This document shows, one piece after another, positions 1 through 18,564 of a DNA stretch of 64,000 nucleotides. The position numbers were made by a program, and so were the translations under genes. A model generated the notes under the pieces. That model saw only the letters and a program-made list of their open reading frames with translations. It was not told the origin of the DNA and did not search any database. The DNA lies in assembly GCA_050246755.1 (NCBI GenBank), contig JBFWVL010000001.1, positions 640,001 through 704,000 of the forward strand, given 5' to 3'. Source of the DNA: Bacteriovoracia bacterium (GTDB taxonomy: Bacteria > Bdellovibrionota > UBA1018 > CAIPTA01). Numbering within the stretch: position 1 is the first letter of the stretch; each line of letters opens with the position of its first letter.

Positions 1-1947
1 GTGCAAAAGATATTTTCGGGACTCATCCGAGAGGGCATAGGGCTCTAAGTGCACATTGGCCGCGCCATTGAGCTCCACATTGCGGCGGCACTTTTCTCGC
101 ATGCGCGGATCCGGCTCAAAGGCCACCACGCGGCCGCCGCTTCCCACGCGCCTTGCTAGGTGGAGAGATGTCTCACCGATATTTGCGCCCACGTCGATCA
201 CGGCGTCGCCCCGTGCGGCCAAGCGATATAGCTGATTCTTAGCGCCTTCCATTTTTCCGTAGTATATGTGCCAGTCCAGAAAATCACCGAGGTCGAGTTC
301 GTAGGAAAAGCCCTCGCGGCGTACCGAGCGGCGGCATAAGTTCGGGTATTGATAATGATTGGGCGCGGCCTTCACCACCCAGTTTGGCACCCAAGGGAGC
401 GCGCAGAAACGAGCGAGCAGAGAATCCAACCCGGTGAGCAAAATTAGGGCGCGGCCGGCATTCAATATTTTCGTTTTTCGGCCCTCACCATAAGAGTATT
501 TCCTATCGGAAGCCACTCCTTCGCTTGCCCGCGCGAAGAATAGCCACACGCCCACGCTTCCACAAACCACGCAGAGCAGGGCCTGGCTCCAGCCGTACGC
601 CGGGGCCGATAAATAGAAGATCGCCGGCAGGAGCGCTAGCGCCGCGAAACAGGCCAGCAGTGGCCAAAAAAATTCCGGCAACGCTGGGCGCCGCACCACA
701 AAAATTCCCAGCGAATAGACGGCTAAAAAAATACTGAGCGCGCAGTAGGTGACCGTAACCGCCACCGCACCGAGCACCGGAAACAGCAGAAGCGGCAGGA
801 CCACGGAAAGCCCGTAAAAAAAACACCAGGCCAGAGCGTAGGGCCTAAACCGCCCAGACCCCAACAGTACTGCGAGCCCCGGTTGCGCCAGGAGAAAGAA
901 AAAATCTCCGAGCAGCTGCCAGCCTAGAAAACTTCCCGCATGCAAAAAATCGCGGCTGAAGAAAATCATCAGCACCAGAGAGGGCGCAAAAAGAATTCCC
1001 GCTTGAAATAGCACCGCCAACCCAGCAGTTACGGTAAGCGACTCCGCCCAGGCCGCATGGAGTTCTTTGGGTTCGGTGTCCTTTCCCGCTAAAGGATAAA
1101 GGCCGGCCCAAATGCCATTCATGATTAACTGAGAATAGAGGCCCGAGATCACGCACGCCGCTTGGTAGGCGCCATTCATATCGGCGCCGAAATGGGCCAG
1201 CAGCTTCATCCTAATCAGCATTCCCGCCAAATACGCGAATGTGCTGGTGGCGCTCGTGGCCACGCTGGAAGAGGCCAGCTCCCGGACTACCGCGTGCGAC
1301 CAACCGAAGGAAAGCATGTTCCGCGCAGTTTCCACTTTCAGGCACTGCCGAAATACGCAAATCGCCCAGATAAAAGTAGCGAAACCCGTGGCCCAAAAGG
1401 CCCCGGCCACTCCCCAGAAATAAATTCCCGCCGCGAAGACCACCACTTCCACCAAGGCACCCGCGGCATTCGCACGCGACCAATCGTCGTAGTGTCCGTG
1501 CGCGAAGAGAATTCCTTGGAAGTAGGCTCCGATCATTACCTGAAAAGGTACGGCTAGCAGCGCGGCGATCACCAAGCGCGGCTCCGATTCACCAAAAATT
1601 TGGAACCCTAGCCAGTGCCGGAAAGCAATTACCACGACGGCCAATAGGAGATTGGCGCCACAAAGCAAAGTAAAAGAAGTGGCCAATACTTCCTTCCTTC
1701 TCGATGAGCCTAAGGCGAGGCCATAGCTTCGGATGAAACCGGCGCTGATGGACAAAGATCCCCAGGTGAGCCCGAGCAGCTGCAACTGGCCGCCTATACC
1801 GATAAGCCCTACGCCCGAGGCGCCCAAAAAAAGAGCGGCCATTTTTGTTTTGGCAAAACCAGAAAAAATCCTCGCCACCGTCCCGAATCCCATTACGAGA
1901 TTGGCGCGCAGCGAAGGGAACGATCCTAAGAGTTTACGAAAATTCAT
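1..1947 (-). CDS. Wzx-type (WzxE-like) polysaccharide flippase fused in frame to a C-terminal FkbM-family methyltransferase; 3' end lies outside the window
   Basis: Manual translation from ATG at 1947 (ATGA overlap with the upstream GT stop) finds no stop to the window edge. First ~477 codons are polytopic with WzxE-like motifs (KTKMAALFLGASGVGLIG, GADMNGAYQA, FSRDF...WQLLGDFF). It then continues into VIDVGANIG...VVAFEPD (FkbM). Confidence 0.85.
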   Translation of the reverse strand, partial: MNFRKLLGSFPSLRANLVMGFGTVARIFSGFAKTKMAALFLGASGVGLIGIGGQLQLLGLTWGSLSISAGFIRSYGLALGSSRRKEVLATSFTLLCGANLLLAVVVIAFRHWLGFQIFGESEPRLVIAALLAVPFQVMIGAYFQGILFAHGHYDDWSRANAAGALVEVVVFAAGIYFWGVAGAFWATGFATFIWAICVFRQCLKVETARNMLSFGWSHAVVRELASSSVATSATSTFAYLAGMLIRMKLLAHFGADMNGAYQAACVISGLYSQLIMNGIWAGLYPLAGKDTEPKELHAAWAESLTVTAGLAVLFQAGILFAPSLVLMIFFSRDFLHAGSFLGWQLLGDFFFLLAQPGLAVLLGSGRFRPYALAWCFFYGLSVVLPLLLFPVLGAVAVTVTYCALSIFLAVYSLGIFVVRRPALPEFFWPLLACFAALALLPAIFYLSAPAYGWSQALLCVVCGSVGVWLFFARASEGVASDRKYSYGEGRKTKILNAGRALILLTGLDSLLARFCALPWVPNWVVKAAPNHYQYPNLCRRSVRREGFSYELDLGDFLDWHIYYGKMEGAKNQLYRLAARGDAVIDVGANIGETSLHLARRVGSGGRVVAFEPDPRMREKCRRNVELNGAANVHLEPYALSDESRKYLLH

Positions 1948-3059
1948 CGGTAGAGCTCCCGCAATCCGTCCACCATTTTTTCCATGGAAAAAAGACTACG
2001 TGCCTCAACCGCGCCGGCAGCGGCTAAGCGCCTGGCCTCTTCTGGACTCCGCAGCAAGCGTAGTATCCCCGCCCCGATGGCCGCGGCATCGCGAAATGGA
2101 ACGGTGAGCGTATTTTCCCGGTCGCGCAGAACCTCCGGCGCCACTCCCGAAAGCGTGGTCACCGAGGGTACCGAGCTGAGCAGAGCTTCGATGTATACCT
2201 GCCCGAATGCTTCGCTCACGCGATCGACCGGCACGTGCACGAAAACATCAAAGCTTCGCATCAGGGCCGGAGAGTCGCTTTCGAAGGCGATTTCACGGTA
2301 AGCATACGGCGGTAATTTCCGCAATGCGTGCTGGATCTCCGCGCGCCCAGCCCCCTGGCCGGCATTCGCCAGAACTAGGCAAGCTTCGGGGAATTCCCGC
2401 AATACTTCCGCAAAAGCCTCGATCACGTAGGGCACGCCTTTAATGGGAACATAGCGGGAGATCACCCCCACCACCGGGGCCTTCGCGGCGTAGCCATATT
2501 TATTTTTTACGGCCGAAATGCGCGCGGCGCTTACGCCGGCGAACTCGCTCGGCTCGAATCCTAAGTGCACAACCTTGATTTTCTGCTTCTCTACTTTTTC
2601 TTTCTGGATCAAATACTCTTCCACATTGCGGCACGTAGCCACGATCTTGGTGGAAAGGCCGTTGGCCAAAAAATCATATCCTTTGGCGTACCATGGTCCT
2701 AGCTCATGCGGATTGGAATGATGGCGGGTATAGATCCGGTTCGGCACCCGCATTACCCATGCAGCAACTAAACCCGCCAGATTCGCCGCCAGCAAATGCG
2801 TATGCACGGTGCCCGGCCGAAGCTGCCGAAATATTTTCAGCAGCGAAAAAAAAGCGGAAAAAATATCGGCACGTCCGGCATAGGGAACTATCCGCACTTC
2901 CGCCCCTAGGCCGCGCAGCTGCTCTTCGAGCTTGCCAGGACCGGAATTCATCAGCACGAACACGATTCGCCAGCTTTCCCCTGTGGCCTTGGCCGCCAGC
3001 CAGGCGAATCCCGGCGCGTCTTGCACTTCCGAAATAACGTAGACCACCGTAGTACTCAC
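1944..3059 (-). CDS. GT4-family glycosyltransferase
   Basis: GT-B motifs VHTH, SRYVPIKG, EAFGQVYIEA. Confidence 0.9.
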   Translation of the reverse strand: MSTTVVYVISEVQDAPGFAWLAAKATGESWRIVFVLMNSGPGKLEEQLRGLGAEVRIVPYAGRADIFSAFFSLLKIFRQLRPGTVHTHLLAANLAGLVAAWVMRVPNRIYTRHHSNPHELGPWYAKGYDFLANGLSTKIVATCRNVEEYLIQKEKVEKQKIKVVHLGFEPSEFAGVSAARISAVKNKYGYAAKAPVVGVISRYVPIKGVPYVIEAFAEVLREFPEACLVLANAGQGAGRAEIQHALRKLPPYAYREIAFESDSPALMRSFDVFVHVPVDRVSEAFGQVYIEALLSSVPSVTTLSGVAPEVLRDRENTLTVPFRDAAAIGAGILRLLRSPEEARRLAAAGAVEARSLFSMEKMVDGLRELYR

Positions 3060-4168
3060 GGCCGCTCCTCCATCCGGAATACGCGCTCGAACACGGAAAG
3101 ATAAATAGGCTGGTTCGCCTGCACCGAATAAAGCTGTTCCACCCGGCTCCTGGCTTCCTCCCCCAGGCGCTTCCGCAGGGGCGCGTTGCGCAGCAGTTCC
3201 CTAAGTGTCGCGAGCCATTCTTCCTCGGTCTTTACTAGAAAACCCGAGCGTCCGTTTTCGATCACCCGGAAATTGGCGCCGATCGCGGTAGCGACCGTGG
3301 GAATTCCGAGGGCCATGTATTGCAGAGCCTTGAGACCACTCTTTCCCAATACCCATTCTTCCTCGGGTAACGGATAGACTCCGATATCGATTTCCTGAAG
3401 CTCGCTCACCTCGGACGCTTCCGTCCACTTCCGGCACTTCACCTCTACTCCGGGAATCACGAACTCCTCGGTGCCGATCACCTTAACTACGAATCGGTCG
3501 GTCAAGGCCAGCTTCTGAAAAACTCCCTCGAGCAGCTTAAGGTAGGGAACCGTACTGTGGCTCCCGCTCCAGCCGATCACCAAGGGGTGATCGTTCAGAT
3601 AGCGATTCACCGGACGATAGGCGTCGGTGCGGATGGTAGACGAAATATCCGTGGTGCGATCGTTGAACATCCGCACGTGGGCATCTAGGTAAGGGGTGCA
3701 GGTGATCACGTGATCAGCTTTTTCCATTAAGAAGGAATATTTGCGGGGATTTTTCCAGCGCGCGGCCACTCTATTCACCTGCGAGCTCGGGCCGAGGTAT
3801 ACTAGATCGTCGATATCATAGATCAAGCGCCGGGAAAGGCGGCGGAAAAGGCTTTCGAGCCCGGCGCCGCCAAACGGAGCGGCGTGCAGAAAAATATAAG
3901 TTCCGTCGAAAAATGGCGTGCGGAAAAGGTCAAAAATGCGGCGAAGGTAACCGCCGAGCACGCCAGCGGCCTTACGCACATAGTTCCCGCGCTGGTAGAG
4001 AATCTTCCAGGTGCCCTGCGAAAAAAATGGGGATACGGTGATCGAATATCCTTGTGCCCGCAGAAAATCGAAGTACTGCTCGTATTTCAGCCGCTGCCCC
4101 GGGGCTACGCCTTCGGGGTAAGGACAAAGCAATAGAATTTGTTTTTTCTTTCGCTTCAGGGAAAGCAA
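3056..4168 (-). CDS. GT4-family glycosyltransferase
   Basis: YDIDD, IGWSGS, DIGVYPL...GKSGLKALQYMALGIP motifs; start uncertain. Confidence 0.9.
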   Translation of the reverse strand: MLSLKRKKKQILLLCPYPEGVAPGQRLKYEQYFDFLRAQGYSITVSPFFSQGTWKILYQRGNYVRKAAGVLGGYLRRIFDLFRTPFFDGTYIFLHAAPFGGAGLESLFRRLSRRLIYDIDDLVYLGPSSQVNRVAARWKNPRKYSFLMEKADHVITCTPYLDAHVRMFNDRTTDISSTIRTDAYRPVNRYLNDHPLVIGWSGSHSTVPYLKLLEGVFQKLALTDRFVVKVIGTEEFVIPGVEVKCRKWTEASEVSELQEIDIGVYPLPEEEWVLGKSGLKALQYMALGIPTVATAIGANFRVIENGRSGFLVKTEEEWLATLRELLRNAPLRKRLGEEARSRVEQLYSVQANQPIYLSVFERVFRMEERP

Positions 4169-5877
4169 GCAAGGACCTCGGCTTTCAGTAAATTGGCATC
4201 GGGCAAAAATAGGTGCAACGGATCAAAAAGAAGAGGCTGGACTGTACCGCCACGCCCAAGCACGTTCCAAATCTCATCGTCCGTGAGGCCGACCTCTCGC
4301 GCCACGAAGCGCATTGCGGCCAGCAGGCTTTCGTGGCTTCCCTTCTCGTAAAGCGCCCTATGTTTCAGCGGCACCACCGCGCCGTTTTTTACGGTATAGT
4401 CGAAACCTTCTTGCTGGTTGAAACCAATTGCGCCCGATAAACGGAGCGCGCCGGCCGCTTTTCGGGCCGCGCCTTTCCAGGAAGGCGGCAATCGGCGTAA
4501 GCGGTTTAATCGGTAGGGCCGATCCTTGCTCCATAGCGCGTAAGTAACGGAAAGCGCCGAAGGATAGAAAACCAGATGCGGCACCTGCGAATCCACGAAC
4601 TCGATTTTCCCTAACTCGTTCGTATAGATCTGGCTGATCTTCAGCCCCCGCTCCTCCCGATCAAAAAGAATCGACTCGTACCCCGGGCCATAAGCCGCCA
4701 GCGAGGTGAGCAGCAGGTTTCCATGGTGGTGGATGCTTTGATGAGAAATATCGGTGCGCCCATCGGGCCGGGGGATCCAAATATTCGCCACCAAGGTGAA
4801 AGCCGGATCCTCGATCATCGGAATCGCCACCACTGGGTTGATGCGTTCGCCCCGGCGAAATTCCGCCGAAAGCACGAACTTTTTCAGCAAGCCGCGTAAT
4901 ACGCTGGCGTCCGCGCCGAGCTGGGCTAATACCGGCCTCGCCAACACGTGCGCCCGTCGGTAGTCGGGTCCAGAAAATATTTTCCGCAGAGCGCTTCGTG
5001 CTTCATCTAATTTTTTTTCTAGGTCCGACCCGGCGGACCCGGAAAAAATCCGGGAGGTAAATTCGCCCAAGCGGTTCTCGTGGATCAAAATATAATTCCC
5101 GTCCCGGTAATCCGCGCCTCGCTGCTCCACCAAAAGTTTTTTGTCGGTATCGTAGGAGAAAGTACGGTAGCCCAGATCCGCGATCAGCCCGTGCAGGCTC
5201 TCGGGCGTGATTTTAAATCCCGCAAGAAAAAGCGGGCATATCTCCATCAGCACCACCGGCTGATCCCTGCCCAGCAAAGCTGCCATGCCCTTCAGCGCAA
5301 AATACTCGGCCCCTTCAATATCAATCTTTATGAAGGCCACGCGTGCGATCCGCTCACGCCATTCCGCGCTGTCCAGCGCCGCCACCTGACACCTCACCTT
5401 CACGCTTTTTTTGAAGCTGTAGTGAGAATCCATGCCCGAGTTATCGCGGCCGGAAATATGCGCCTGTCCCGCGCTCGGAGTGCCTACGTCTTGGAGGGGC
5501 AGCTCGAATTCCACGATTCCATTTCGCTCGCCTACTCCCACAGAGTGTAGCTCCACGTTCTTCAGCCGGAGCTTGTGCACGATCGCCGCCAAATCGGCGG
5601 CGGTGCTAGGAATCGGCTCAAAGGCATGCACTTTACCGGAACCACAAAGGGCCGATAAACGGCTGGTGTAGTATCCGAAATTTGCGCCGATATCGAGCAC
5701 GTGATCTCCGCTGCGCACGAACCATGGCAAAATCGCCATCTCGGGCTCTTCCACTAGGCGGTACCTGATATCTCGTAGCTTGGCACGCCGGTGAAACCAA
5801 CTGTAGCCGCGGCCGCCGAGCATTTTTTTTATGACCGGTTTCAGTACCCGGCGCGTAACAGAATTTACCGAGGCCAT
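4156..5877 (-). CDS. FkbM-family methyltransferase with an extra ~290-aa C-terminal cupin-like domain
   Basis: N-half has VLDIGANFG, FEP and IKIDIEGAE. C-half has ANIW...HQSIHHHG...PHLV. Confidence 0.85.
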   Translation of the reverse strand: MASVNSVTRRVLKPVIKKMLGGRGYSWFHRRAKLRDIRYRLVEEPEMAILPWFVRSGDHVLDIGANFGYYTSRLSALCGSGKVHAFEPIPSTAADLAAIVHKLRLKNVELHSVGVGERNGIVEFELPLQDVGTPSAGQAHISGRDNSGMDSHYSFKKSVKVRCQVAALDSAEWRERIARVAFIKIDIEGAEYFALKGMAALLGRDQPVVLMEICPLFLAGFKITPESLHGLIADLGYRTFSYDTDKKLLVEQRGADYRDGNYILIHENRLGEFTSRIFSGSAGSDLEKKLDEARSALRKIFSGPDYRRAHVLARPVLAQLGADASVLRGLLKKFVLSAEFRRGERINPVVAIPMIEDPAFTLVANIWIPRPDGRTDISHQSIHHHGNLLLTSLAAYGPGYESILFDREERGLKISQIYTNELGKIEFVDSQVPHLVFYPSALSVTYALWSKDRPYRLNRLRRLPPSWKGAARKAAGALRLSGAIGFNQQEGFDYTVKNGAVVPLKHRALYEKGSHESLLAAMRFVAREVGLTDDEIWNVLGRGGTVQPLLFDPLHLFLPDANLLKAEVLACFP

Positions 5878-7115
5878 CGGCTTTCCCCTTTCTGGCCCTT
5901 ACCGGGCGATAAAAAATCGTAGATTTCCGCATAGCCGGCCAAGGCGCGGCCCAGCGAGAATTCCTTTTCGGCCACCGCCCGTATCGCCGCACCGTCGATG
6001 GCTAGCAAATCCGGGATTCTTTCTGCGGCACGCTGAAGTTCCGAAGCGGAAAAATCTTTCACTAGGTGGCCTAAATCGTGATCAGCAAAAATGCGAGATT
6101 GGTCGCCGATTCCGTGATTCGCGATCACCGGAACTCCGGCCGCCATGAATTCCCCTAGCTTGGTGGCCGAAGAAGATATTTTCGAATAGCAGGGACGAAT
6201 AAAAAATATTCCCACATCCACCATCGATAGCAGCCCGGGCACCTCCCGTCGGTCGGCCGCCACCACGACGATAGCGGAGGCCGCTACTTCGCACTTGGCC
6301 GCGGCCGCCAGGATCAGCTTGGGAGCATCCGGGGTAATAAGGAGAAATTTCGCCGTCGGAGTCCGAGCTTGAATTTTCTGGAAGAGGCTCATCATTTCTT
6401 CAATGCAATACCAGGTGCCCACGGAACCCAAGTACCCGCAAACTAAACCACTATCCTTCAATGCAACCTTTACCTGCGGCGCGCCGGAAGAATTTTCCGT
6501 TTTTGCAAACAACCCGATCTCCACGCAACAGGGAATCACCCAGAGGCGCTCTTCGAGACGGGATTCCCTAATTCCCCTCCAAGAAAGCATTTCTTCGCGC
6601 GCGGCCTCGGTGAGACAAACGACGGCGTCGGCCCGCAGGAGAAGATTTCTCTCTAGCCGCTTAAAGAGCCGAAAAATAAATCGGTAGGCGGGTTTCCGCA
6701 TATTCCAGAGGCCCCCGTCTACGCGCTCGTCCGCCCAAAATCCGCGCATATCGAAAATCAACTTGGTGCGGCTGATTCGCTTCAAGGCCAGCCCTACCAC
6801 GGCCGGCACATAGCTACGCACGTGCACGGCCTCAAAACTCCCGGCCCGCCATGCGCAAAAGGCCATCCGCCAGATATCCCATACGGTGGAGAGAACCGGC
6901 GGGCGCTTATGATACCAGAGACGCTGCCAAGCGATTCCCTTCGAGGCGAGCTCCGCGTTCACCGCTGCTCCTCGCTTCGAAAAATTTTCCCGCTTTTCGC
7001 AGCTCAATACGGTAATGCGATGCCCGGCCGCAGCCAACCCGTAGATATAGGGAAGAATCTGGGAAGCCCCTAGGTTATCCGTTAACCCATCGTAGGTAAT
7101 ATATAGGCATTTCAT
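5865..7115 (-). CDS. GT4-family glycosyltransferase
   Basis: HVRSY, FDMRGFWADE, SSATKLGEFMAAGVP. Confidence 0.9.
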   Translation of the reverse strand: MKCLYITYDGLTDNLGASQILPYIYGLAAAGHRITVLSCEKRENFSKRGAAVNAELASKGIAWQRLWYHKRPPVLSTVWDIWRMAFCAWRAGSFEAVHVRSYVPAVVGLALKRISRTKLIFDMRGFWADERVDGGLWNMRKPAYRFIFRLFKRLERNLLLRADAVVCLTEAAREEMLSWRGIRESRLEERLWVIPCCVEIGLFAKTENSSGAPQVKVALKDSGLVCGYLGSVGTWYCIEEMMSLFQKIQARTPTAKFLLITPDAPKLILAAAAKCEVAASAIVVVAADRREVPGLLSMVDVGIFFIRPCYSKISSSATKLGEFMAAGVPVIANHGIGDQSRIFADHDLGHLVKDFSASELQRAAERIPDLLAIDGAAIRAVAEKEFSLGRALAGYAEIYDFLSPGKGQKGESRWPR

Positions 7116-7948
7116 CGCGCTGTTTTTCTTGCGGTAAGCGTCCAGTGAGGCTGGGCGTCGGAAAATCTAACGTCTTCAAAGCCGGCGGCCTTCATCATGC
7201 GGATGATTTGTTGCCGGGAAAATCGCTGCTCGAGCTTCGTGCCGAAGCGATCAAGCGCGTCGGTACGCATTACGTAAAAAGATTTATCGCCGTAGTAGCG
7301 CAATGGCCAATGCGGGATGGCGCCGCCTTTTATTCTTTCCGCCAAGGCACCGCCGCGGGCCATAGGCCAGTAGACCACCGCCGCTAAAAACTCGCAGGCG
7401 GCGAATCTCGATCGGCGCGGCAGGCGGCAAATAAGCCGTCGCAAAAGATCCGTGATGCGCCAAACAGCGCGGAAATACCAAGGGCGATTTTCAAAGTTAT
7501 AATAAAGGTAAAGCAGTACCGGTGCCCGGTCGCGCATTTTCCTCGCTAGCTCTACGAGCGCCGCCTGGGTATCAGGAACGTGATGCAGAACTCCCAGCGA
7601 ATACGCAAAATCTAGCGACTCATCGGCAAGGGGCAGGCGCCCGGCATCTCCCTGAATAATTTGCACATTAGAATGCGCCCGCAAATTTCTCTCCGCTACT
7701 TGGAGGGCGCCGGCGCTCGCATCGATCGCCCACAGCGCGCCCACCTTCGGCGCCACGCAGGCCGCCCAGCGCCCGGATCCGCAGCCAATATCTGCCCCAA
7801 TGGCTTCCTTATGCAGTACTTCGCTTGGCAGCAGAGAGAAATAGTCATGGAAAATCGCGCACCGTTCTTCCGGAACTAAATGCGATTGATTGAACCTAAT
7901 CCACTCTTCCCCAAAGCCTTGTACGGTGCGTTCGTCGATATTGCTCAT
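7112..7948 (-). CDS. Class I SAM-dependent methyltransferase (polysaccharide-locus type)
   Basis: DIGCGSGRW SAM motif; DFAYSLGVLHH. Confidence 0.9.
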   Translation of the reverse strand: MSNIDERTVQGFGEEWIRFNQSHLVPEERCAIFHDYFSLLPSEVLHKEAIGADIGCGSGRWAACVAPKVGALWAIDASAGALQVAERNLRAHSNVQIIQGDAGRLPLADESLDFAYSLGVLHHVPDTQAALVELARKMRDRAPVLLYLYYNFENRPWYFRAVWRITDLLRRLICRLPRRSRFAACEFLAAVVYWPMARGGALAERIKGGAIPHWPLRYYGDKSFYVMRTDALDRFGTKLEQRFSRQQIIRMMKAAGFEDVRFSDAQPHWTLTARKTAR

Positions 7949-10059
7949 ACTGTTCGCACCGCTTCCCGGCTTTCCGGACTAATTTTTACCAGTGCAGGAT
8001 AGCCGTGGCGTCCGTAACCGCCGTAGCCGTAGTGCTGGCTGGGCGGAACTTTATTCAATACGGCATAGAGCTCGCGGCCGTGCGCAGTCCACAGACCTTC
8101 CACCGAATCGTGCAGTACGCGCAGCCGGGTTTCGTTCAGCGCCACGATCACGATCGGGATCTCCGCGGCTTTGGCGATCAGGCTTGAATCCCCCGAAACT
8201 CCGATTGGCGCCGAATCGATCACGATAAAATCGTAGAGCGCGCGGAAATCGTCGAGTAGCTGACTGAAGTCGCGCGAGGCCAAAATGGCGGTCGGATTAG
8301 ATCGGCGGAGGCCCGCCGGTAAAAAATCCAGGCCTTCGGCGACTTTAGCGATACGGGCATTACCGAAATTTTCCCGGTGTCCCACCACTTCGCATAAGCC
8401 TTCTTTGCCTAGCGCATTCTGGTTCTGGCTCAGGGCCGGTGCCCGCAAGTCGGCATCCACCAATAGCACCCGGTTTTCGCAGCTGGCTAGGGCACGGGCG
8501 ATCCGCTCGGAGGTAAACGTCTTGCCTTCGCTCGGTTCAGAGCTGGTTACCGCCACTACCTGGCCGCGACCAGCCCCGGTTCGATCGCGGATTTCCATGA
8601 TACGCGCCGAAATCTGCATGGCCGAAGAATTGATCTTCTGCGCCATCGCCAGCGAAATGGGCCGACGGAGCTGACTCTCCCGCCGCGAGAAAAACCTCCA
8701 GAAACCTCCTTTAACGTGGCCGTAAGGCAAACTGCCAAGCAGCGAAAGGCCTGCTTCCTCGATATCGATCTTAGACGCCGCCAAGGGATTCACCGTCTCC
8801 ACCGCGAAAGCCACGAAACTCGAGAGAATCATGGCCACCACAAAGCTCACCAGCAACTTGGAAGGCAGGCTCTCGCTCGGCTGCACTACTTCGGGACGTG
8901 AAGGCTCGAGAAGATGAAATTTGCTCCGCGCCGAGATCCGGCGCATTTCCATCTGAAAATCGTGCTTCTTTAATTCTTGGTGGAGCGAGGTTTCCAGCTC
9001 TAAGTTCTTTTTTAGCTCCATGAGCTGCTGCTCGGCGTGTTCATCGAAATTCGTCTGTAAGGATCTTAGCTGCCGCTGCAAGCTGGCGTTGCGCGCGCGC
9101 AGGGATTCATCGAACTTACGGAGCGAAGCGAGCTTACGGCGGACGCCGAACTTATAGTCAAAAGGCTCTGCACTGGAGGCGGGGCCCGCCTCGCCGATCC
9201 TATCGATCTCGTTTTTATTTTGGTCGATCTGTAACTGATTTTCCGCGAGGGCCCGTTTCAGCTCTACGGAGCGGATGGTGGCCTCATCGAAGTTTTGGCT
9301 CATCGTGAGCAAGCTCTTTCCTCTTTTGAAATCGGCGATGGCCTGCTCGGTCTTGCGGATAGCTTCCTGAGACTTATTCGCTTGAATCCGGAGATAGACT
9401 TCGGAGTCTTGCAGATCCTGCACCTCGAATTCGATCAGGGCATTCACCGCGGACCGGGCTAAAAGGTTCGTCAGCCGCGACACGATCTCGGCGGAACTCG
9501 ACTGCACGTGAATTGAGAACGCATCGATACCGTCTTTTGAAAATGCGATCATGCTCTGCAGACTTTCCGCCAGCCGATCCACCGGAATATCCTTCACCAC
9601 CCGGCCGAGGTCCGTCTCCGCGTGAGATTGCGAAAAAAAGCTCACCCGCTTCGACGGACCGAAATCCCCGAAGGGCAGCACGCTGAGCTCGGGATCGGCT
9701 TGCACGTCGCGCGCCGCCCGCTCGTAGAAAGCGTGGATCCGTAGCTGGTTGAGGTAACGGTCTACTTCGCGTCCGTCCACGTCGAATCCGGAAAATCCGC
9801 CGAGCCGGGCGGAGAGAGACTGGAGGGGATTATTGATGGCGGCCTGGAGCATCAGCGTTGCTTTGGTGCGATACGAAGGGCTGAGAAAATGCAGTACCGT
9901 GGAAGTACCGGCACAAAAGAAAATCACGACCAAGTAAAGACGAAGATGCCGGCTCACTAGCTGAAGAACTTTTTCGACCGGATTCTGAGCGAGCGAAGAC
10001 GCCGACGATTTTGCCGTCCCGATCGTTCTTCCTGAATGATCCTGGCGCCGATTACTCAC
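7945..10059 (-). CDS. wzc: Wzc-type polysaccharide co-polymerase / BY tyrosine kinase
   Basis: Two TM helices flanking a coiled coil; Walker A SSEPSEGKT, VDADLR, IDSAP; Tyr-rich tail HYGYGGYG. Confidence 0.9.
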   Translation of the reverse strand: MSNRRQDHSGRTIGTAKSSASSLAQNPVEKVLQLVSRHLRLYLVVIFFCAGTSTVLHFLSPSYRTKATLMLQAAINNPLQSLSARLGGFSGFDVDGREVDRYLNQLRIHAFYERAARDVQADPELSVLPFGDFGPSKRVSFFSQSHAETDLGRVVKDIPVDRLAESLQSMIAFSKDGIDAFSIHVQSSSAEIVSRLTNLLARSAVNALIEFEVQDLQDSEVYLRIQANKSQEAIRKTEQAIADFKRGKSLLTMSQNFDEATIRSVELKRALAENQLQIDQNKNEIDRIGEAGPASSAEPFDYKFGVRRKLASLRKFDESLRARNASLQRQLRSLQTNFDEHAEQQLMELKKNLELETSLHQELKKHDFQMEMRRISARSKFHLLEPSRPEVVQPSESLPSKLLVSFVVAMILSSFVAFAVETVNPLAASKIDIEEAGLSLLGSLPYGHVKGGFWRFFSRRESQLRRPISLAMAQKINSSAMQISARIMEIRDRTGAGRGQVVAVTSSEPSEGKTFTSERIARALASCENRVLLVDADLRAPALSQNQNALGKEGLCEVVGHRENFGNARIAKVAEGLDFLPAGLRRSNPTAILASRDFSQLLDDFRALYDFIVIDSAPIGVSGDSSLIAKAAEIPIVIVALNETRLRVLHDSVEGLWTAHGRELYAVLNKVPPSQHYGYGGYGRHGYPALVKISPESREAVRTV

Positions 10060-10123
10060 GGGTTGATTCTACTCCTTGAATCAATTTGCTAGCCCATATT
10101 CCAATAGGATAAATTGAATAGAA

Positions 10124-11317
10124 ATGATTGTTAAGCAAAAGTTGCGTACACGCCCGCCCGGTGGGCCGGCCCAAACCATCATCCTCGCGGCGAATACCGC
10201 CTGGTACCTTGCGAATTTTCGCCTTAATCTCGCGCGTGCGCTCCGGGCCGCCGGTTACCGCGTATTGCTCATTGCCCCTCGCGATGAGTTCGCGGAAAAA
10301 TTATCCGCCGAAGGCTTCGAGTACGTGGGCTGGAACCTATCCCGCACCGGTCTCGGAGTGCGTGAAACAGCACGCGCTTTCTGGAGCCTCTATATCGTGT
10401 ACCGGCGGGAGCGCCCAATCGCGGTGCATCACTTCACGCTAAAATGTATTTTACTCGGGAGCGCGGCGGCGGCGCTGGCCCGGGTGCCAAATGTCTTCCA
10501 TTCGGTCACGGGGCTTGGGCATCTTTTCATTCATAGATCTTTGCGCATTCGTTCTCTTCGCTCCATCACGGTTTTGCTCCTGCGTGTATTTTTTTTCTTC
10601 ACGAAACCACGGATGATTTTTCAAAATCACCAAGACTGCGCCCGCTTCCGCTCCCTACGCCTCGCTCCTCCCGCACGCAGCCACCTTATTCCTACTTCCG
10701 GCATCGATGTCGCCTTCTACCGTCGCGAAGCGCCGCCCAGAATTCCCTCCGGCGAACGGCCGATCGTGCTCTACGCGGGCCGCATATTGGCGGAAAAAGG
10801 AGTGAGGGAATTCGTGGCCGCCGCCTCGCGGCTTCGCGCCGAAGGAATAGAGGCGCGCTTTCTGCTCGCAGGCGCGACGGACGCCGGCAACCCTTCTTCC
10901 ATCGCCCCCTCGCAACTCGCCAGCTGGAAACGAGACGGAAACGTAGAATTGCTGGGCCATGTTTCCGATCTGCGCCCGCTCATGGCCGAGTCCGCCGTGT
11001 TCGTATTACCCTCCTATCGCGAGGGCGGATCCCGCGTAATCCTCGAGGCGGCCGCGATGGAACTGCCGATAATCACCACCGACGTGCCGGGTTGCGAGAA
11101 TCTCGTCGATCACGGAAAAACCGGCTTAGTGGTACCCGTTCGCGATGCCGCCAGCCTCGCCGGAGCGATTCGCGATCTGATTGCCAACCGGGAAACTGCG
11201 GCTCGCATGGGCGCCGCCGGGCGGGCAAAGGTAATCCGCGAATTCTCCGATGAGATAGTCGTCCGCGCCACGCTCAGTGCCTATTCCTCGGCCGGCATCT
11301 CCGGCTCTTGCCTCTGA
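10124..11317 (+). CDS. GT4-family glycosyltransferase (CapM-like)
   Basis: NFR, GRILAEKG, LPSYREG...EAAA, TTDVPGC. Confidence 0.9.
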   Translation: MIVKQKLRTRPPGGPAQTIILAANTAWYLANFRLNLARALRAAGYRVLLIAPRDEFAEKLSAEGFEYVGWNLSRTGLGVRETARAFWSLYIVYRRERPIAVHHFTLKCILLGSAAAALARVPNVFHSVTGLGHLFIHRSLRIRSLRSITVLLLRVFFFFTKPRMIFQNHQDCARFRSLRLAPPARSHLIPTSGIDVAFYRREAPPRIPSGERPIVLYAGRILAEKGVREFVAAASRLRAEGIEARFLLAGATDAGNPSSIAPSQLASWKRDGNVELLGHVSDLRPLMAESAVFVLPSYREGGSRVILEAAAMELPIITTDVPGCENLVDHGKTGLVVPVRDAASLAGAIRDLIANRETAARMGAAGRAKVIREFSDEIVVRATLSAYSSAGISGSCL

Positions 11318-12570
11318 GCTAAGTAAGCCAGCAGCAGCAATAGCAGCGGAAGCACCTGCAGACGGAAACGAAAAGCCGAGCCGAGATTTTGGTAAGACAC
11401 GTAGCTATAGATAAAGCTCCACGAAAAAAGCAGGCTAATCGCCCACACCGCCGCCGGGTCGAAAAGCCGTCGCCAGGTGAAACGGCGGATCGAAAGATAA
11501 ATCAGGAATAGCAGGAATAAATTCTCGATTCCGGCCAGCGTCCCAAAGAGGTTGCGCACTTCTCCTGGTAAAGGACGCAGAAGCGCCGTGAACATTCCCG
11601 CCGGCGCAAACGCGATCATTTCCCCGATTGACTGGAACTCCGGAACCTCTTGCCGCGAGCCACCGACGCTCCAAGAGCGCGAGATAATATTAGTTTTCCG
11701 CACCAAATCATCCACGCTCTTAAAAGTGAAGTGCTCCACGAAAATCTGTGCTGAAAGAAATAGCAGCGCCACGGAAAATAGCGCGTACCCGACCCGGTAG
11801 AAGGCGCCGCGCACGTAAAAGAACCCGAGTGGCAGCATGGGCAGAGCGAGGATGAAGGCCGTCCAGGGGCGAATGCTCGAGGCTAACACCGCCCCCGCGA
11901 ACGCGGGAAGAATCCAAATGAGGTTTCTGGTGGCCATCCAGTAGAGAACTCCCGCGGCGTAAACCGATATACCGAGCAGCATAATCGGATCTTTTCCTAA
12001 AATCGAAGACCAAAAGACGACCGAAGGGAACGCACCTAAAAAAAGCAATAACCGAGGATTCCTCCGCCCCGAATACCGAATCGCCGCCGAATAAATTAAA
12101 TATATCGATAATAGACCGATCAACGAAAAAATAACTTTTAGCGCGTGGTAGGAATTCGAGCTCGGCAGCCACTTATTAATATACCAAATTAGCCAGCCGA
12201 TATTGCCGGTGCCTTTTCCGAATCCCGTGAGGCTGGTATCGAAATTAATTTCTTTCGCTTCGAGGTAGTAGGTATAGGCATCGAGACCGTAGTTATTTTC
12301 GTATAGCAGCATGAAGCCCAAGGTAGTGAGGCAGCGGAGGATCCAGAGCACCGCCAAAATCCGACGGTCCTCTCGAGACAACGGCGAGATCCAGAGCGCC
12401 AGTCCGATGCCGAACGCCAGCACCAGCGCGGTGGCATAGTCTGTGGCTACGTTTGCCGAAGGAATGAAGTGCCCCCACTCCGTGACGCAGGCGAGAAACA
12501 CGCAGGCCGCAATACCCCCCAATATTCCCATCACGGCGCCGGTACTTGTTTGTGAGAAAAACCTACTCAT
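11281..12570 (-). CDS. Putative Wzy-type polysaccharide polymerase (polytopic membrane protein)
   Basis: ~11 hydrophobic segments; DA..YY, WSS..GKD and NLGSAFRFR motifs; ATG at 12570 overlaps the upstream stop (ATGA). Confidence 0.7.
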   Translation of the reverse strand: MSRFFSQTSTGAVMGILGGIAACVFLACVTEWGHFIPSANVATDYATALVLAFGIGLALWISPLSREDRRILAVLWILRCLTTLGFMLLYENNYGLDAYTYYLEAKEINFDTSLTGFGKGTGNIGWLIWYINKWLPSSNSYHALKVIFSLIGLLSIYLIYSAAIRYSGRRNPRLLLFLGAFPSVVFWSSILGKDPIMLLGISVYAAGVLYWMATRNLIWILPAFAGAVLASSIRPWTAFILALPMLPLGFFYVRGAFYRVGYALFSVALLFLSAQIFVEHFTFKSVDDLVRKTNIISRSWSVGGSRQEVPEFQSIGEMIAFAPAGMFTALLRPLPGEVRNLFGTLAGIENLFLLFLIYLSIRRFTWRRLFDPAAVWAISLLFSWSFIYSYVSYQNLGSAFRFRLQVLPLLLLLLAYLAQRQEPEMPAEE

Positions 12571-14102
12571 ACCGCAGTTTGATTTGTATTCGCACCGTGG
12601 GCGTCGGCGTGGGCCAGCTGGAAGAGATAATTTGACTCCGTGCCAGCTTCTCCTTCCGCGAGCACTTCTTGCACTTCCCAATCTACATTGAGGTAGCTAT
12701 TCGAATATTGAAGCGCAAATAAATTTTGAAAGTCCTGGAGTTTTCCCATGAGCAAAGCCTTCGTAGCGATGCGTTCTCTGGCATGCACTCGGCCCTCGAA
12801 AAAAATATGCATCTCGGAATTCTTTATGAAGTAGTTATCACCTTTCGTCAAAATCGATTCGACAACCAAGTTGAGACTGCGCATGATCTCAACGATCCTT
12901 CCCTTTTCCTCCCATAATCCGCACTGAAAGAGCGGCTCGAGGTTCACCTTCGCCACCAAGCAGGGTTGAAAGCCGAGCTTCAGGGATGCTGGTCGCGAGG
13001 AGTTGTCGCCAAAAGAAGCCGCCAAACTCCCAGTACGGCTCATCTCGAGCAGCTTCAAAAAATAAACCGGCACGCAGATTCCCGCCGCCACGATCACCAA
13101 CAGCAGCGTCACGGCGATGGGAAGAGAGAAACCTACACGGAAGCTCTCGCTGCGCGCCAACTCGATCACGAGGAAAGCGCTCGTCTGCAGGTAGAGCGTA
13201 AGCCCTAAAATAAGCGTCACCACCCGCGCCGGGGGTAGATTCATCCGCAGCAAGCGGTGGTGCAAATGGCCACGGTCGGCTTTAAAGATTGGATTTCTCG
13301 AGCGCAGCCGCCGTAAAGTGCATAAGCCCATGTCGAGGATCGGGTAGCCAAGCATCATCAGAAGCCCAAAAACCTCCGAGAAAGAGGCCGTAGACACCGG
13401 CCCCGCCAATGAAGTAAGTCCGATGAGAAAGCCAATCGGCAAACTGCCGTTATCGCCAAAAAAGACGGAAGCCGGGCTCCAGTTCTTCGCGAGGAATGCT
13501 AATACCGCGGGCAGCAGCAGGGCGCTCACAAGCAGGCTCAAGATTCCCTGATTCGCCCCGACCGCCAAAATCGCAATACTCGCCAGAATGAAGGCCGAGA
13601 TCCCGCCGGCCAGGCCGTCGAGCCCGTCCACCAGATTCATCGCGTTGCTTACGCCCACCAACCAGACACCCGCGAGAGGCCAGGCAAGCCAGCCAATTCT
13701 CGCCTGCCAGCCCAGACAGAATTCTCTTATTTCCGGCACCGCCGCGATCACCACCGCCGCCACGAGGAACTCTACCGGCAATTTCACTCGCGGCGAGAGG
13801 CCGCGCAAATCGTCGTAAAGGCCAAGCGCGCATAGCACGCCCGCGCCTCCCGCGATCCACGAAAAAGACCAAGCGAGGTTGGTCCACAGCTGAGGGTGTA
13901 GAGAAAAATAAATGGCGCAGGATAGATACCAGGCGGCCATCACCGAGATCCCGCCCACCATCGGCATCGGATGCAGGTGACGCCGGCGCGAGCTCGGGTG
14001 GTCCACCCAGCCCACCTTCTTAGCGAAGGGAATACTCGCTCGCAAAATGGCGTGCGCCAAAAGAAATGACAGAAAAGGAAACCACAAATCGCGAATGTTC
14101 AT
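12567..14102 (-). CDS. MraY/WecA-family undecaprenyl-phosphate sugar-1-phosphate transferase with a C-terminal soluble extension
   Basis: GLYDD, NLVDGLDGLA, FFGDNGS, DRGHLHHRL motifs. Confidence 0.9.
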   Translation of the reverse strand: MNIRDLWFPFLSFLLAHAILRASIPFAKKVGWVDHPSSRRRHLHPMPMVGGISVMAAWYLSCAIYFSLHPQLWTNLAWSFSWIAGGAGVLCALGLYDDLRGLSPRVKLPVEFLVAAVVIAAVPEIREFCLGWQARIGWLAWPLAGVWLVGVSNAMNLVDGLDGLAGGISAFILASIAILAVGANQGILSLLVSALLLPAVLAFLAKNWSPASVFFGDNGSLPIGFLIGLTSLAGPVSTASFSEVFGLLMMLGYPILDMGLCTLRRLRSRNPIFKADRGHLHHRLLRMNLPPARVVTLILGLTLYLQTSAFLVIELARSESFRVGFSLPIAVTLLLVIVAAGICVPVYFLKLLEMSRTGSLAASFGDNSSRPASLKLGFQPCLVAKVNLEPLFQCGLWEEKGRIVEIMRSLNLVVESILTKGDNYFIKNSEMHIFFEGRVHARERIATKALLMGKLQDFQNLFALQYSNSYLNVDWEVQEVLAEGEAGTESNYLFQLAHADAHGANTNQTAV

Positions 14103-14151
14103 CCATGAACCTCGTTAAGCTTCATCCTGAAGCGAAAACATTTAAAAAACT

Positions 14152-14658
14152 TTAGAGCTCCTTCTTAATCAAAATTCCCGTTAGTGCCGCCGTCAGCAAG
14201 GTGGCCACCACGGTAATCGTAAGCATCGTATTATTGGAGACCGCCGGCTTTTCGGTGGGAATAAATACGGTATCTTCCCCTCTCAGAATCGGCGATTTCC
14301 CGCTGCTAGCTAGAAGATCGTGAAAATCTACCTTGTCAATCCTGCCCGCACGCTCGTTCTTGATCGTGATATCGTCCATCGCGGAGTTATCGCCGGTTCC
14401 GCCGGCGATCGAGAGCAAGGTAGTTAGGCTCGTATTCTGCGGCACGTGGTAGATTCCGGGGCGGTGCACATTCCCCAGCAAAAAAACCGGCATGAGCTTT
14501 TGCTCGAGCTCATCGCCATAAATATATTCGGAAAGCTGCTGAATATTCTGCTTTTCCCGCTCGAAGGTTCCGGCCCTTTCCGCCGCCACGGCGCTGCGAG
14601 AGAACGAAAGAATGAGGATCCACACGAACGCTTCTCTGCTTTGTTTCCACACAGTCAT
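14152..14658 (-). CDS. SLBB-domain polysaccharide export (short OPX/Wza-like) protein
   Basis: VFLLGNVHRPGIY...AGG and LRGEDTVFIP SLBB motifs; C-terminal hydrophobic helix; start placed at ATG 14658. Confidence 0.8.
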   Translation of the reverse strand: MTVWKQSREAFVWILILSFSRSAVAAERAGTFEREKQNIQQLSEYIYGDELEQKLMPVFLLGNVHRPGIYHVPQNTSLTTLLSIAGGTGDNSAMDDITIKNERAGRIDKVDFHDLLASSGKSPILRGEDTVFIPTEKPAVSNNTMLTITVVATLLTAALTGILIKKEL

Positions 14659-14726
14659 GCCTAAATAATACCAGCTATTGGCGAGGGGTCGAAAAAATAA
14701 TTGTGCAATTGTTGCGATCGCTTGGC

Positions 14727-15614
14727 TCACGCCACCGGATGCGATGAGAATTCACAAATGATTTCGGTCTTGCAATCCGTCAACACGGTGCCCGCATGGA
14801 TTGGCAACCCGGTATCCGCCAAATAAATCATTGCGCCCTTCGATTCCAAGTAACCCACTAAAGCTGCAGCCGAAGATCCATGTTCACGTAAATTCTGGTC
14901 GGAAAGCTCGAGGAAAATTTTGGGACGGAAACGATCGATCGTCTGTGCTGCCCCTTGGAGAACCTGTAGCTCGAAACCCTCCACGTCGATCTTGATCGCG
15001 TCCACATTTTCGATTTTCGATTCCTCTATGTAATCGTCCATACGCACCACCGGCACTTGGGTATAGTCTTTTCCGGCCGGACTTTCCGGCAGAATCCGGT
15101 TCATGCCTGGGTTGCGCTCACATACGCGATAAAGATTTAGCCGCGCGTTTCTGGCACCGAGGGCGCATGGTTCGAGCACCACATTCGCCAGACCGTTGAT
15201 CTCTACGTTTTTCTTGCAACGGGCAAAGTTCATCCCGTCGGGCTCAAATCCAATCACCCGTCCTCCGCTCCCCACCGCCCGCGCGAAACGCATCACAGTA
15301 GATCCAATATTGGCCCCCACGTCGAGCACCGTGCCATCGCGCCTCACCATGGAGAAATATTTGTCCTGCTCTTTCTCTCGGAGCTCAAAGTACACCGCCC
15401 AATCCACGAGGTCGGAAATATCGAGCTCGAACTCCAGGCCAAATCGCGAAACCCGGCGCCAGCTCGGCTTAGGATATTGGTAATGATTCGGAATCACCTT
15501 CGTCCACCGCGATTCCAGCGGCGCGCCCTGCACGAAACGAAGTAATATCTTTTCGGTCGCGGGAAAAATAAATATCCGGCGCAACTGATTAAGAACGGTC
15601 GTTTTTATTTTCAC
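14727..15614 (-). CDS. FkbM-family methyltransferase
   Basis: VLDVGANIG, FEPD, IKIDVEGFE. Confidence 0.9.
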   Translation of the reverse strand: MKIKTTVLNQLRRIFIFPATEKILLRFVQGAPLESRWTKVIPNHYQYPKPSWRRVSRFGLEFELDISDLVDWAVYFELREKEQDKYFSMVRRDGTVLDVGANIGSTVMRFARAVGSGGRVIGFEPDGMNFARCKKNVEINGLANVVLEPCALGARNARLNLYRVCERNPGMNRILPESPAGKDYTQVPVVRMDDYIEESKIENVDAIKIDVEGFELQVLQGAAQTIDRFRPKIFLELSDQNLREHGSSAAALVGYLESKGAMIYLADTGLPIHAGTVLTDCKTEIICEFSSHPVA

Positions 15615-16147
15615 TTTATTTCCACGCTAACGATTCCGGCCTTCGCCGCGAGTTTGATCGCCGCCAAAGCAACCGTCTCGCTCAGCGAGGATTCCTGCAG
15701 CTGAAACTCTACGGCGGCTCCGTCCTTATTCTCGTGCAGCCATGCTTCCCCGCTAAACGTTTGACCTAACGGCGATTTGGCCCTCACCTTCCATGGCCCA
15801 GCCGGCCGGCTCCGTCTTCCTCTCACCCATACCTCTACCGATTTTTCCTCCGGCAACAAGGCCGTGAGGAAACTGGATTTCGTGTCCAGGCGAAAATACA
15901 CTTCATCCGCACCGGTACTTTTTTCCGTAATCTTAAAAAACTCTTCCAGCCTGGAAGACGATTTCCCCTTACCCACCGCTTGCGGGACTCCCGGGGTGAA
16001 CAGCGCGGCCACGATCTCCGAAGGCGCGGCATAAACTTGACGCGACACTACGGGAACTTTCAGGTCGGCGGCGCCGGCCGGCCCAAACTTGAGCAGGAGA
16101 AAAATAAATGAAAAGGACCACGGAAGTCGCGTCGTAATGGTGATCAT
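15611..16147 (-). CDS. Hypothetical exported protein, possibly SRPBCC/START-like fold
   Basis: Signal-peptide-like N-terminus; stop overlaps the start of the downstream FkbM gene; fold is a guess. Confidence 0.6.
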   Translation of the reverse strand: MITITTRLPWSFSFIFLLLKFGPAGAADLKVPVVSRQVYAAPSEIVAALFTPGVPQAVGKGKSSSRLEEFFKITEKSTGADEVYFRLDTKSSFLTALLPEEKSVEVWVRGRRSRPAGPWKVRAKSPLGQTFSGEAWLHENKDGAAVEFQLQESSLSETVALAAIKLAAKAGIVSVEIK

Positions 16148-18299: not shown

Positions 18300-18564
18300 A
18301 GGATCTCCAAAGTTCAGGGCCATTACGGCTCCGCTTTTATTCCCGTTCCTCGCTTTTCACCAAGGAGAAAAAGCGCGTAGTGCCTGAAAACTTAATTTAC
18401 AGGCGAATTTCACCGTGAAGGGGAATGCGATAGAGCAAGTTCGGGGCCAACGTAAAATTCAAAATTTAGAGCTGTGCACAATAGGAAATTTGTTTGCTTC
18501 AGCGATCTTTATCTTTTAGTTTCCCGGCGAACCGTTGGCCTTTTTCTACGAGATAGGAACTTTT

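Follow-up and report, generated by a model that had tools for sequence, protein, structure and literature searches.

Structure of the fused gene

A single gene in which a Wzx-like flippase is joined to an FkbM-family methyltransferase lies at the left edge of the stretch of DNA analysed here, 64,000 nucleotides of contig JBFWVL010000001.1 from a Bacteriovoracia bacterium (G000:C1:640001-704000; hereafter the window). An earlier reading made from the letters alone (hereafter the sequence-only reading) had described a minus-strand open frame from an ATG at window position 1947 to the window edge, and re-reading of the sequence confirmed this stop-free frame, which reaches window position 1 and comprises 649 codons. 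Read further into the genome, beyond the window, the full frame meets a stop after 787 codons (L001:1084-3447, minus strand); the remaining ~416 nucleotides of the gene lie outside window position 1, up to G000:C1:639584. The product is a single polypeptide of 787 amino acids, an in-frame fusion of a Wzx-like flippase and an FkbM methyltransferase, and the joining of a complete flippase with the enzyme, as the sequence-only reading had it, was borne out by comparisons with NCBIfam, Pfam, Foldseek and phmmer. The start codon of the fused gene and the stop of the GT4 glycosyltransferase gene upstream of it (1944-3059) share 4 nucleotides. The features of the fused gene are as follows, in window coordinates (pLDDT, predicted local distance difference test).

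1..1947, minus strand: part of the fused gene inside the window, residues 1-649 of 787
673..1908, minus strand: 12-helix Wzx/MOP core, residues 14-425, defined by end-to-end alignment with the solved WzxE
535..669, minus strand: two extra hydrophobic helices (transmembrane helices TM13-14), about residues 427-471, absent from WzxE
478..534, minus strand: linker, residues 472-490, defined by a pLDDT below 50 at residues 477-488 and by the alignment, and rich in lysine and arginine
328..477, minus strand: N-terminal helical extension of the methyltransferase, residues 491-540, marked by invariant columns
1..195, minus strand: initial portion of the FkbM (Methyltransf_21) core; by Pfam the domain covers residues 585-749, of which residue 650 onward lies outside the window

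On the opposite strand, a 512-amino-acid open reading frame (ORF) converges with the fused gene just left of the window (L002:13169-14707, plus strand, corresponding to G000:C1:638169-639707). Its 3' end overlaps that of the fused gene by 124 nucleotides, and it has neither a Pfam or NCBIfam match nor a hydrophobic segment.

Integrity of the junction

The junction between the two halves is located at about L001:1990-2040, that is, at window positions 490-540. Logan contigs of four sequencing runs from three studies were compared with the assembly over L001:1000-3500, and in all four runs the junction was covered by contigs with no gaps; neither a stop nor an indel was present at the place where the sequence-only reading had wished to see the reads confirmed. 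In the runs X1 and X2, one or both of which may be the source of the assembly, the whole of L001:1000-3500 was covered without a difference. The other two runs come from other samples. In X3, a contig of 1611 nucleotides spans the junction and shows neither a difference nor a gap; in X4, a contig of 221 nucleotides spans it with two substitutions and no gap. The X4 contigs carry seven substitutions in all, of which three are synonymous and four give three conservative residue changes, namely T207A (two substitutions in one codon), V410I and A516T, and none of them creates a stop.

The linker contains an in-frame GTG (V478, window position 516) with AGGA just upstream, which might be taken for the start of a separate methyltransferase. 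However, the AGGA lies immediately next to the GTG, leaving no spacer, and the homologues do not share this GTG, so that a separate internal start is without specific support, and this codon was rejected as the true start. In the absence of a stop codon, any ribosome that translates the flippase must continue into the methyltransferase. An assembly artefact was likewise rejected, because of the gap-free contigs of the four runs and because eight homologues (see below) have the same open frame. It is thus extremely improbable that the junction is an assembly error or that an internal start is the sole source of the methyltransferase. In two metatranscriptome runs of one study almost none of the sequence words of this stretch were present, a result that does not bear on expression.

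The flippase half

As judged from a structural model, the N-terminal 471 residues are a Wzx-type flippase of the MOP superfamily, composed of a WzxE-like 12-helix core and a two-helix hairpin. When the sequences of the Protein Data Bank (PDB) were searched with phmmer, only WzxE was matched (9g95_A, E-value = 7.9e-8, residues 14-425 aligned with 6-420). The NCBIfam model of WzxE matched residues 15-418 over 406 of its 416 profile positions (E-value = 2e-17), scoring 63.6 bits where the equivalog cut-off is 325, and the fused protein is therefore not a WzxE orthologue. The Pfam models PF01943, PF13440 and PF14667 gave no match to the fused protein at E-values up to 1, and the FkbM domain alone was recognised by Pfam.

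The AlphaFold2 model, built from an alignment of nine sequences, has a mean pLDDT of 82.4, with low confidence limited to residues 477-488 (pLDDT below 50) and the C-terminal tail. The flippase part of the model has the 12-helix MATE-like fold of two six-helix bundles. In a Foldseek search of the PDB, the top five matches were WzxE chains with template modelling (TM) scores by target of 0.85-0.88, followed by MATE and MurJ structures; the best was 9g9n_A (E-value = 6.5e-13, TM score 0.88 by target, 20% identity). The extents of TM13-14 are 427-447 and 453-479 as AlphaFold helices, and 421-452 and 452-475 as hydropathy segments. Six charged residues in the helices (R26, K33, K35, R158, R246 and D348) are invariant across the nine fused sequences. 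The role of this half would be to move an undecaprenyl-pyrophosphate-linked repeat unit across the inner membrane. The sequence-only reading had called it a WzxE-like flippase of about 477 codons; the length was correct within a few residues, since the final membrane helix extends to about residue 471, and the complete fold and alignment also stood, whereas the helices number 14 and not 12 and the Pfam Wzx models are silent.

The methyltransferase half

On the basis of profile and motif comparisons, the C-terminal half is a complete, ordinary member of the FkbM family, predicted to depend on S-adenosylmethionine (SAM). PF05050 matched over profile positions 1-172 of 173 (E-value = 9.2e-24, 84.9 bits, cut-off 22.7), and TIGR01444 scored 66.4 bits (cut-off 37.7) on the window-truncated part alone; with both models above their cut-offs, the FkbM identity given by the sequence-only reading holds. 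The motifs DVGANIGET (D585-T593), FEPDP (F610-P614) and KIDVEGFE (K695-E702, apart from the variable I696) are conserved in all nine sequences, and we take them to be the SAM-binding motifs of class I methyltransferases, among them the glycine-rich one with the acidic residue that comes after it. The enzyme would presumably methylate a sugar hydroxyl.

The conserved region K491-P535, which follows the linker and precedes the Rossmann core, does not belong to the linker: it corresponds to the native N-terminus of the stand-alone relatives. These stand-alone methyltransferases (~290-305 amino acids, ~295 being typical) start at profile positions 484-490, and the conserved positions of the extension include K491, N496, R499 and the motif PNHYQYP. 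A structural match in the ESM Atlas covers residues 483-778 with a TM score of 0.93. Among the nearest ESM Atlas entries, which represent clusters of at least 50 members only and whose feature scores of 0.84 make them no more than leads, there was no fused cluster, and no solved relative of the methyltransferase half was found by sequence at E-values up to 0.01.

Linker and membrane topology

The two halves are joined by 19 residues, and the short hydrophilic linker that the sequence-only reading had quoted, RASEGVASDRKYSYGEGRKTK, corresponds to residues 473-493. The linker is indeed short and hydrophilic, and it is poorly conserved: its sequence varies among the homologues, with a variable core of 3-11 residues, and the frame is kept throughout.

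The topology was derived from the 14 helices of the AlphaFold model together with the hydropathy plot, the N-terminus being assumed to lie inside. In all nine fused sequences, the loops so placed inside contain 17-24 lysine and arginine residues and those placed outside contain 2-5. By this distribution over 14 helices both ends of the protein are predicted to be inside the cell, which answers a question raised by the sequence-only reading, namely on which side of the membrane the FkbM domain lies: it would be cytoplasmic, tethered near the entrance of the flippase. In WzxE, according to PMC11706664, both termini are cytoplasmic, and a C-terminal arginine cluster next to the cytoplasmic entrance, R413-415, is essential for activity. 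In a pairwise alignment this cluster falls on R421-R422 of the fused protein. With the two helices after R421-R422 the chain would come back to the cytoplasm, so that the predicted place of the methyltransferase is inside the cell and close to the entrance.

Distribution and origin of the fusion

A search of 5.8 billion protein clusters yielded eight full-length homologues in a single frame (764-786 amino acids, 38-62% identity, 97-99% coverage), all of them from metagenome assemblies. A profile of the nine fused proteins was then compared with 1.84 billion cluster representatives, and the best 150 matches were sorted by half-profiles and Pfam. Seven of these 150 are fused in the same order (P0005, P0006, P0009, P0010, P0018, P0031 and P0141), and one, P0046 (798 amino acids), has the reverse order, with the methyltransferase at residues 32-261 and the flippase at 305-778. 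The polytopic N-terminal halves of P0031 and P0141 were unmatched by the flippase half-profile at E-values up to 10, and P0141 has a weak, sub-threshold match to PF13440; in these two, a methyltransferase of the same subfamily would be attached to a flippase of another lineage. Among the 90% clusters looked up, the eight of same-order fusions are singletons and that of P0046 has three members (with P0279 and P0280). Source names were found on two of the ten clusters looked up: 'FkbM family methyltransferase' for P0046 and 'O-antigen/teichoic acid export membrane protein' for the stand-alone P0013.

For 31 flippase domains a quick maximum-likelihood tree was computed (short search, unrooted, with P0018 as a long branch); in it, nine fused proteins fall in one starred clade with a value of 98 in the Shimodaira-Hasegawa-like approximate likelihood ratio test, and the fused P0018 and the reverse-order P0046 lie in the other main branch. 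The tree requires at least three changes of state. The sequence-only reading had suggested a search for the architecture in related genomes; genomes gave none (see below) and the metagenomes gave rare homologues. Matches to the flippase half by tblastn were confined to loci L005, L007 and L008; at a threshold of 1e-5, none of 80 loci drawn from at least 600 stretches with methyltransferase motifs contained one, which, in so biased a sample, is weak evidence that fused forms are absent. In short, the architecture is real, rare and recurrent.

Loci in which the two domains are separate bear on the origin of the fusion. At L033, a PF01943 flippase gene ends 7 nucleotides before an FkbM gene, and next come another FkbM gene, a GT2 gene and a Wzy_C gene. 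At L103, in a genome of the same class, the upstream GT4 gene has an orthologue whose end overlaps, by ATGA, the start of the gene of a stand-alone methyltransferase of 305 amino acids; the N-terminus of this enzyme, ...RTKILNGLR, matches the last residues of the linker in the fused protein. The most likely origin is the loss of a stop codon between adjacent flippase and methyltransferase genes. Around the closest named stand-alone relatives, in the Bacteroidota loci L015, L017, L019 and L021, the order is GT2, FkbM methyltransferase and GT4. The placing of stand-alone relatives beside GT2 and GT4 genes and in ABC (ATP-binding cassette) transporter loci, together with L103, indicates that proximity to a flippase is not required for this type of enzyme.

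The polysaccharide gene cluster

The surrounding 30 kilobases (kb) are a polysaccharide cluster. From about window position 10059 downward, the genes are on the same strand and abut or overlap, and because of this tight packing the fused gene is regarded as the last gene of an operon. The principal neighbours are as follows.

1944..3059, minus strand: GT4 glycosyltransferase
3056..4168, minus strand: group 1 glycosyltransferase
4156..5877, minus strand: 573-amino-acid protein with an FkbM domain (residues 62-238), then a C-terminal half of ~330 amino acids matching no family
5865..7115, minus strand: GT4-type glycosyltransferase
7112..7948, minus strand: class I methyltransferase (Methyltransf_11)
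7945..10059, minus strand: Wzc-like polysaccharide co-polymerase/tyrosine autokinase (TIGR01007, 111.4 bits, cut-off 108; AAA_31)
11281..12681, minus strand: polytopic membrane protein with about 10 or more hydrophobic segments, candidate Wzy polymerase
12567..14102, minus strand: WecA/MraY-family initiating phosphoglycosyl transferase (PF00953, E-value = 3.3e-32; TIGR02380, E-value = 5.5e-35, below cut-off)
14152..14730, minus strand: SLBB-domain protein, Wza-like export component
14727..15614, minus strand: stand-alone FkbM paralogue of 295 amino acids, 41% identical to residues 489-774 of the fused protein

At least seven glycosyltransferases are encoded in the cluster, as are sugar-nucleotide enzymes of several kinds: 4,6-dehydratase-type, a DegT aminotransferase, an asparagine-synthase-type amidotransferase and a nucleotidyltransferase. 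The cluster (window positions 1-16147 and L002:3356-14707) contains six methyltransferase domains, three of them FkbM and three of other class I types, which suggests that the polysaccharide is heavily methylated; the genome has no FkbM domain outside this cluster. An initiating transferase, a Wzc-like kinase and an SLBB protein are thus encoded alongside the flippase, and the polymerase is represented only by the polytopic candidate, for which no Pfam or NCBIfam match was found. From these gene contents, the cluster appears to be a Wzx/Wzy-type surface-polysaccharide cluster. Among the 29 cluster ORFs scanned, the Pfam MOP and ABC-transporter families (including ABC_tran, ABC2_membrane and Wzt_C) had no match, and the fused protein is the only MOP transporter found. 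The two PF01943 flippase genes of the genome are located ~345 kb away (G000:C1:290768-299729; L095 and L096); they are 5 kb apart and probably belong to a second polysaccharide locus. As to the affiliation of the genome, its RpoB shares 99% identity with a protein attributed to a Bdellovibrionota metagenome-assembled genome, and the other named matches, at 73-74%, are from Bdellovibrionales, Oligoflexia or Bacteriovoracia.

Two further genes of the window were recorded. A gene adjoining the polysaccharide cluster (16284-18323, minus strand) encodes a 679-amino-acid protein whose sole match is DUF7932, and another (21456-24866, plus strand) encodes a protein of 1136 amino acids with five purple-acid-phosphatase N-terminal/fibronectin-III-like repeats.

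Comparison with known systems

The fused protein resembles WzxE, the lipid III flippase of E. coli (PDB 9g95 and 9g9n), in its 12-helix MOP/MATE-like fold, in an alignment that runs from end to end, and in belonging to a pathway of the Wzx/Wzy type that is started by a WecA-type transferase. The cytoplasmic termini, predicted here, and the basic residues after helix 12 are also shared with WzxE as PMC11706664 describes it. This protein differs from WzxE, which stands alone and has ~416 amino acids, in the addition of two helices and an enzyme of 300 amino acids. The enzyme half, in turn, resembles stand-alone FkbM proteins (PF05050/TIGR01444) over their full length, from the N-terminal extension to the C-terminus and with the same invariant motifs, whereas those proteins are soluble, have ~290-305 amino acids, are joined to no transporter, and are found beside GT2 and GT4 genes and also in ABC-transporter loci.

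A flippase with an additional cytoplasmic domain has a parallel in MviN (MurJ) of M. tuberculosis, which, according to PMC12599244, is a MOP-superfamily flippase for a lipid-linked precursor with an extra C-terminal cytoplasmic domain. There the added domain is a catalytically inactive pseudokinase that serves as a regulatory scaffold and, once phosphorylated by PknB, recruits FhaA. Unlike this pseudokinase, the domain added in the fused protein looks like an active tailoring enzyme for the cargo.

The second parallel is WbdD, the kinase/methyltransferase capping the O-antigen chain of E. coli O9a, in which methylation is tied to the export of a lipid-linked glycan (PMC3482155, PMC7685785). 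WbdD belongs to an ABC-transporter pathway and caps a finished polymer, which is recognised by the carbohydrate-binding domain of the transporter; it is neither fused to the transporter nor of the FkbM type. No ABC transporter with a carbohydrate-binding domain, as a cap system of the WbdD type has, was found among the cluster ORFs scanned. The sequence-only reading knew of no described example of a Wzx-methyltransferase fusion, and a full-text literature search, with subscription journals and supplements outside its coverage, found none either; one paper retrieved by the search mentions only a possible fusion of two methyltransferase genes.

Proposed function and alternative explanations

We consider it likely that the fused protein is a bifunctional flippase-methyltransferase, by which the finished lipid-linked repeat unit is methylated at the membrane just before flipping. 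The flippase half would carry the unit over the inner membrane. The flexible linker would leave the last helix on the cytoplasmic side and lead into the FkbM enzyme, which, being tethered there, could act on the finished unit at the entrance of the flippase. Methylation would then be linked one-to-one with export and occur immediately before flipping, which does not imply an obligatory checkpoint. The substrate is presumably lipid-linked, and the two steps may be kinetically coupled.

Several observations weigh against this proposal. Most relatives of each half stand alone: among the best 150 matches to the fused profile, 21 are flippase-only (330-524 amino acids, most of them 430-525) and more than 110 are methyltransferase-only. 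The fused form was found in 0 of 40 close relatives and in 0 of 400 genomes sampled across the same phylum, in which single halves alone gave matches. In the tree, the stand-alone P0013 is nested in the fused clade as the sister of P0010 (support 100). The methyltransferase subfamily is also joined to GT4 domains in both orders (P0081, 688 amino acids; P0147, 666 amino acids) and to itself in tandem (P0156, 566 amino acids). At L103 the methyltransferase gene directly follows the GT4 orthologue and no flippase is present; L017 has genes for the Wzm/Wzt ABC transporter, and at L016 a gene for an ABC-transporter ATPase immediately precedes the methyltransferase gene. The GT4 fusions, the tandem and the ABC-transporter loci fit a modular tailoring enzyme. 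To these are added the silence of the Pfam Wzx models and the NCBIfam WzxE score far under its cut-off.

Much of this would also be expected of a neutral operon fusion, in which a stop codon was lost and the two domains act as their stand-alone relatives do, with no benefit from the tether. Such a neutral event would agree with halves that mostly stand alone, with the rare and patchy occurrence of the fusion (absent from the 400 same-phylum genomes and present in the clusters looked up as eight same-order singletons), with the variable linker of low model confidence, with the stand-alone protein inside the fused clade, and with an enzyme that has various partners and also occurs in ABC-transporter loci. 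However, the fused state has been retained down to 38% identity, and it involves at least three flippase lineages and both domain orders, which exceeds one accident; these points speak for more than a neutral fusion. In both orders, moreover, the methyltransferase would lie on the cytoplasmic side. We therefore regard a neutral fusion as a possible explanation, though a rather unlikely one.

The sequence-only reading had gone further and proposed a modify-then-flip checkpoint, in which the flippase accepts the methylated unit only and the unit is handed over directly from the active site to the entrance. The short linker, which would tether the methyltransferase beside the cytoplasmic entrance, speaks for it, as does the fact that the fusion arose more than once; fidelity of Wzx proteins for their own lipid-linked oligosaccharide is also reported in PMC11706664. 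On the other hand, the other five methyltransferase domains of the cluster are unfused, and related flippases work without a fused enzyme. An obligatory checkpoint thus seems improbable, and tethered late methylation at the flippase entrance is better supported than this modify-then-flip scheme.

It is still less probable that the membrane half is a mere anchor that has lost transport, with the unit exported by another flippase. The silence of the Pfam Wzx models and the presence of the two canonical PF01943 genes elsewhere in the genome would be compatible with such an anchor; against it, the fused protein is the only MOP-type protein found in the cluster, it retains the full 12-helix WzxE fold and the charged helix residues invariant in nine sequences, and its close stand-alone homologues of ~470-525 amino acids have no domain to anchor. 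A bifunctional protein that methylates the finished unit at the membrane just before flipping is the explanation that we prefer.

Biological significance

Since the Pfam Wzx models miss this subfamily and P0046 is named only as an FkbM family methyltransferase, clusters with such genes may be scored as lacking a flippase. The fused protein offers a single-polypeptide system for probing the hand-over of substrate and the selectivity of a flippase. If the checkpoint were true, a Wzx/Wzy pathway would have a completion check of its own, corresponding to the terminal capping of ABC-transporter pathways, and selection for hand-over would account for the repeated independent fusions in both orders. 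The fusion bears on how Wzx flippases recognise a finished repeat unit and on when decorations other than sugars, such as O-methyl groups, are added: a tailoring enzyme placed at the cytoplasmic entrance of the flippase argues that, at least here, the lipid-linked unit is methylated before its export.

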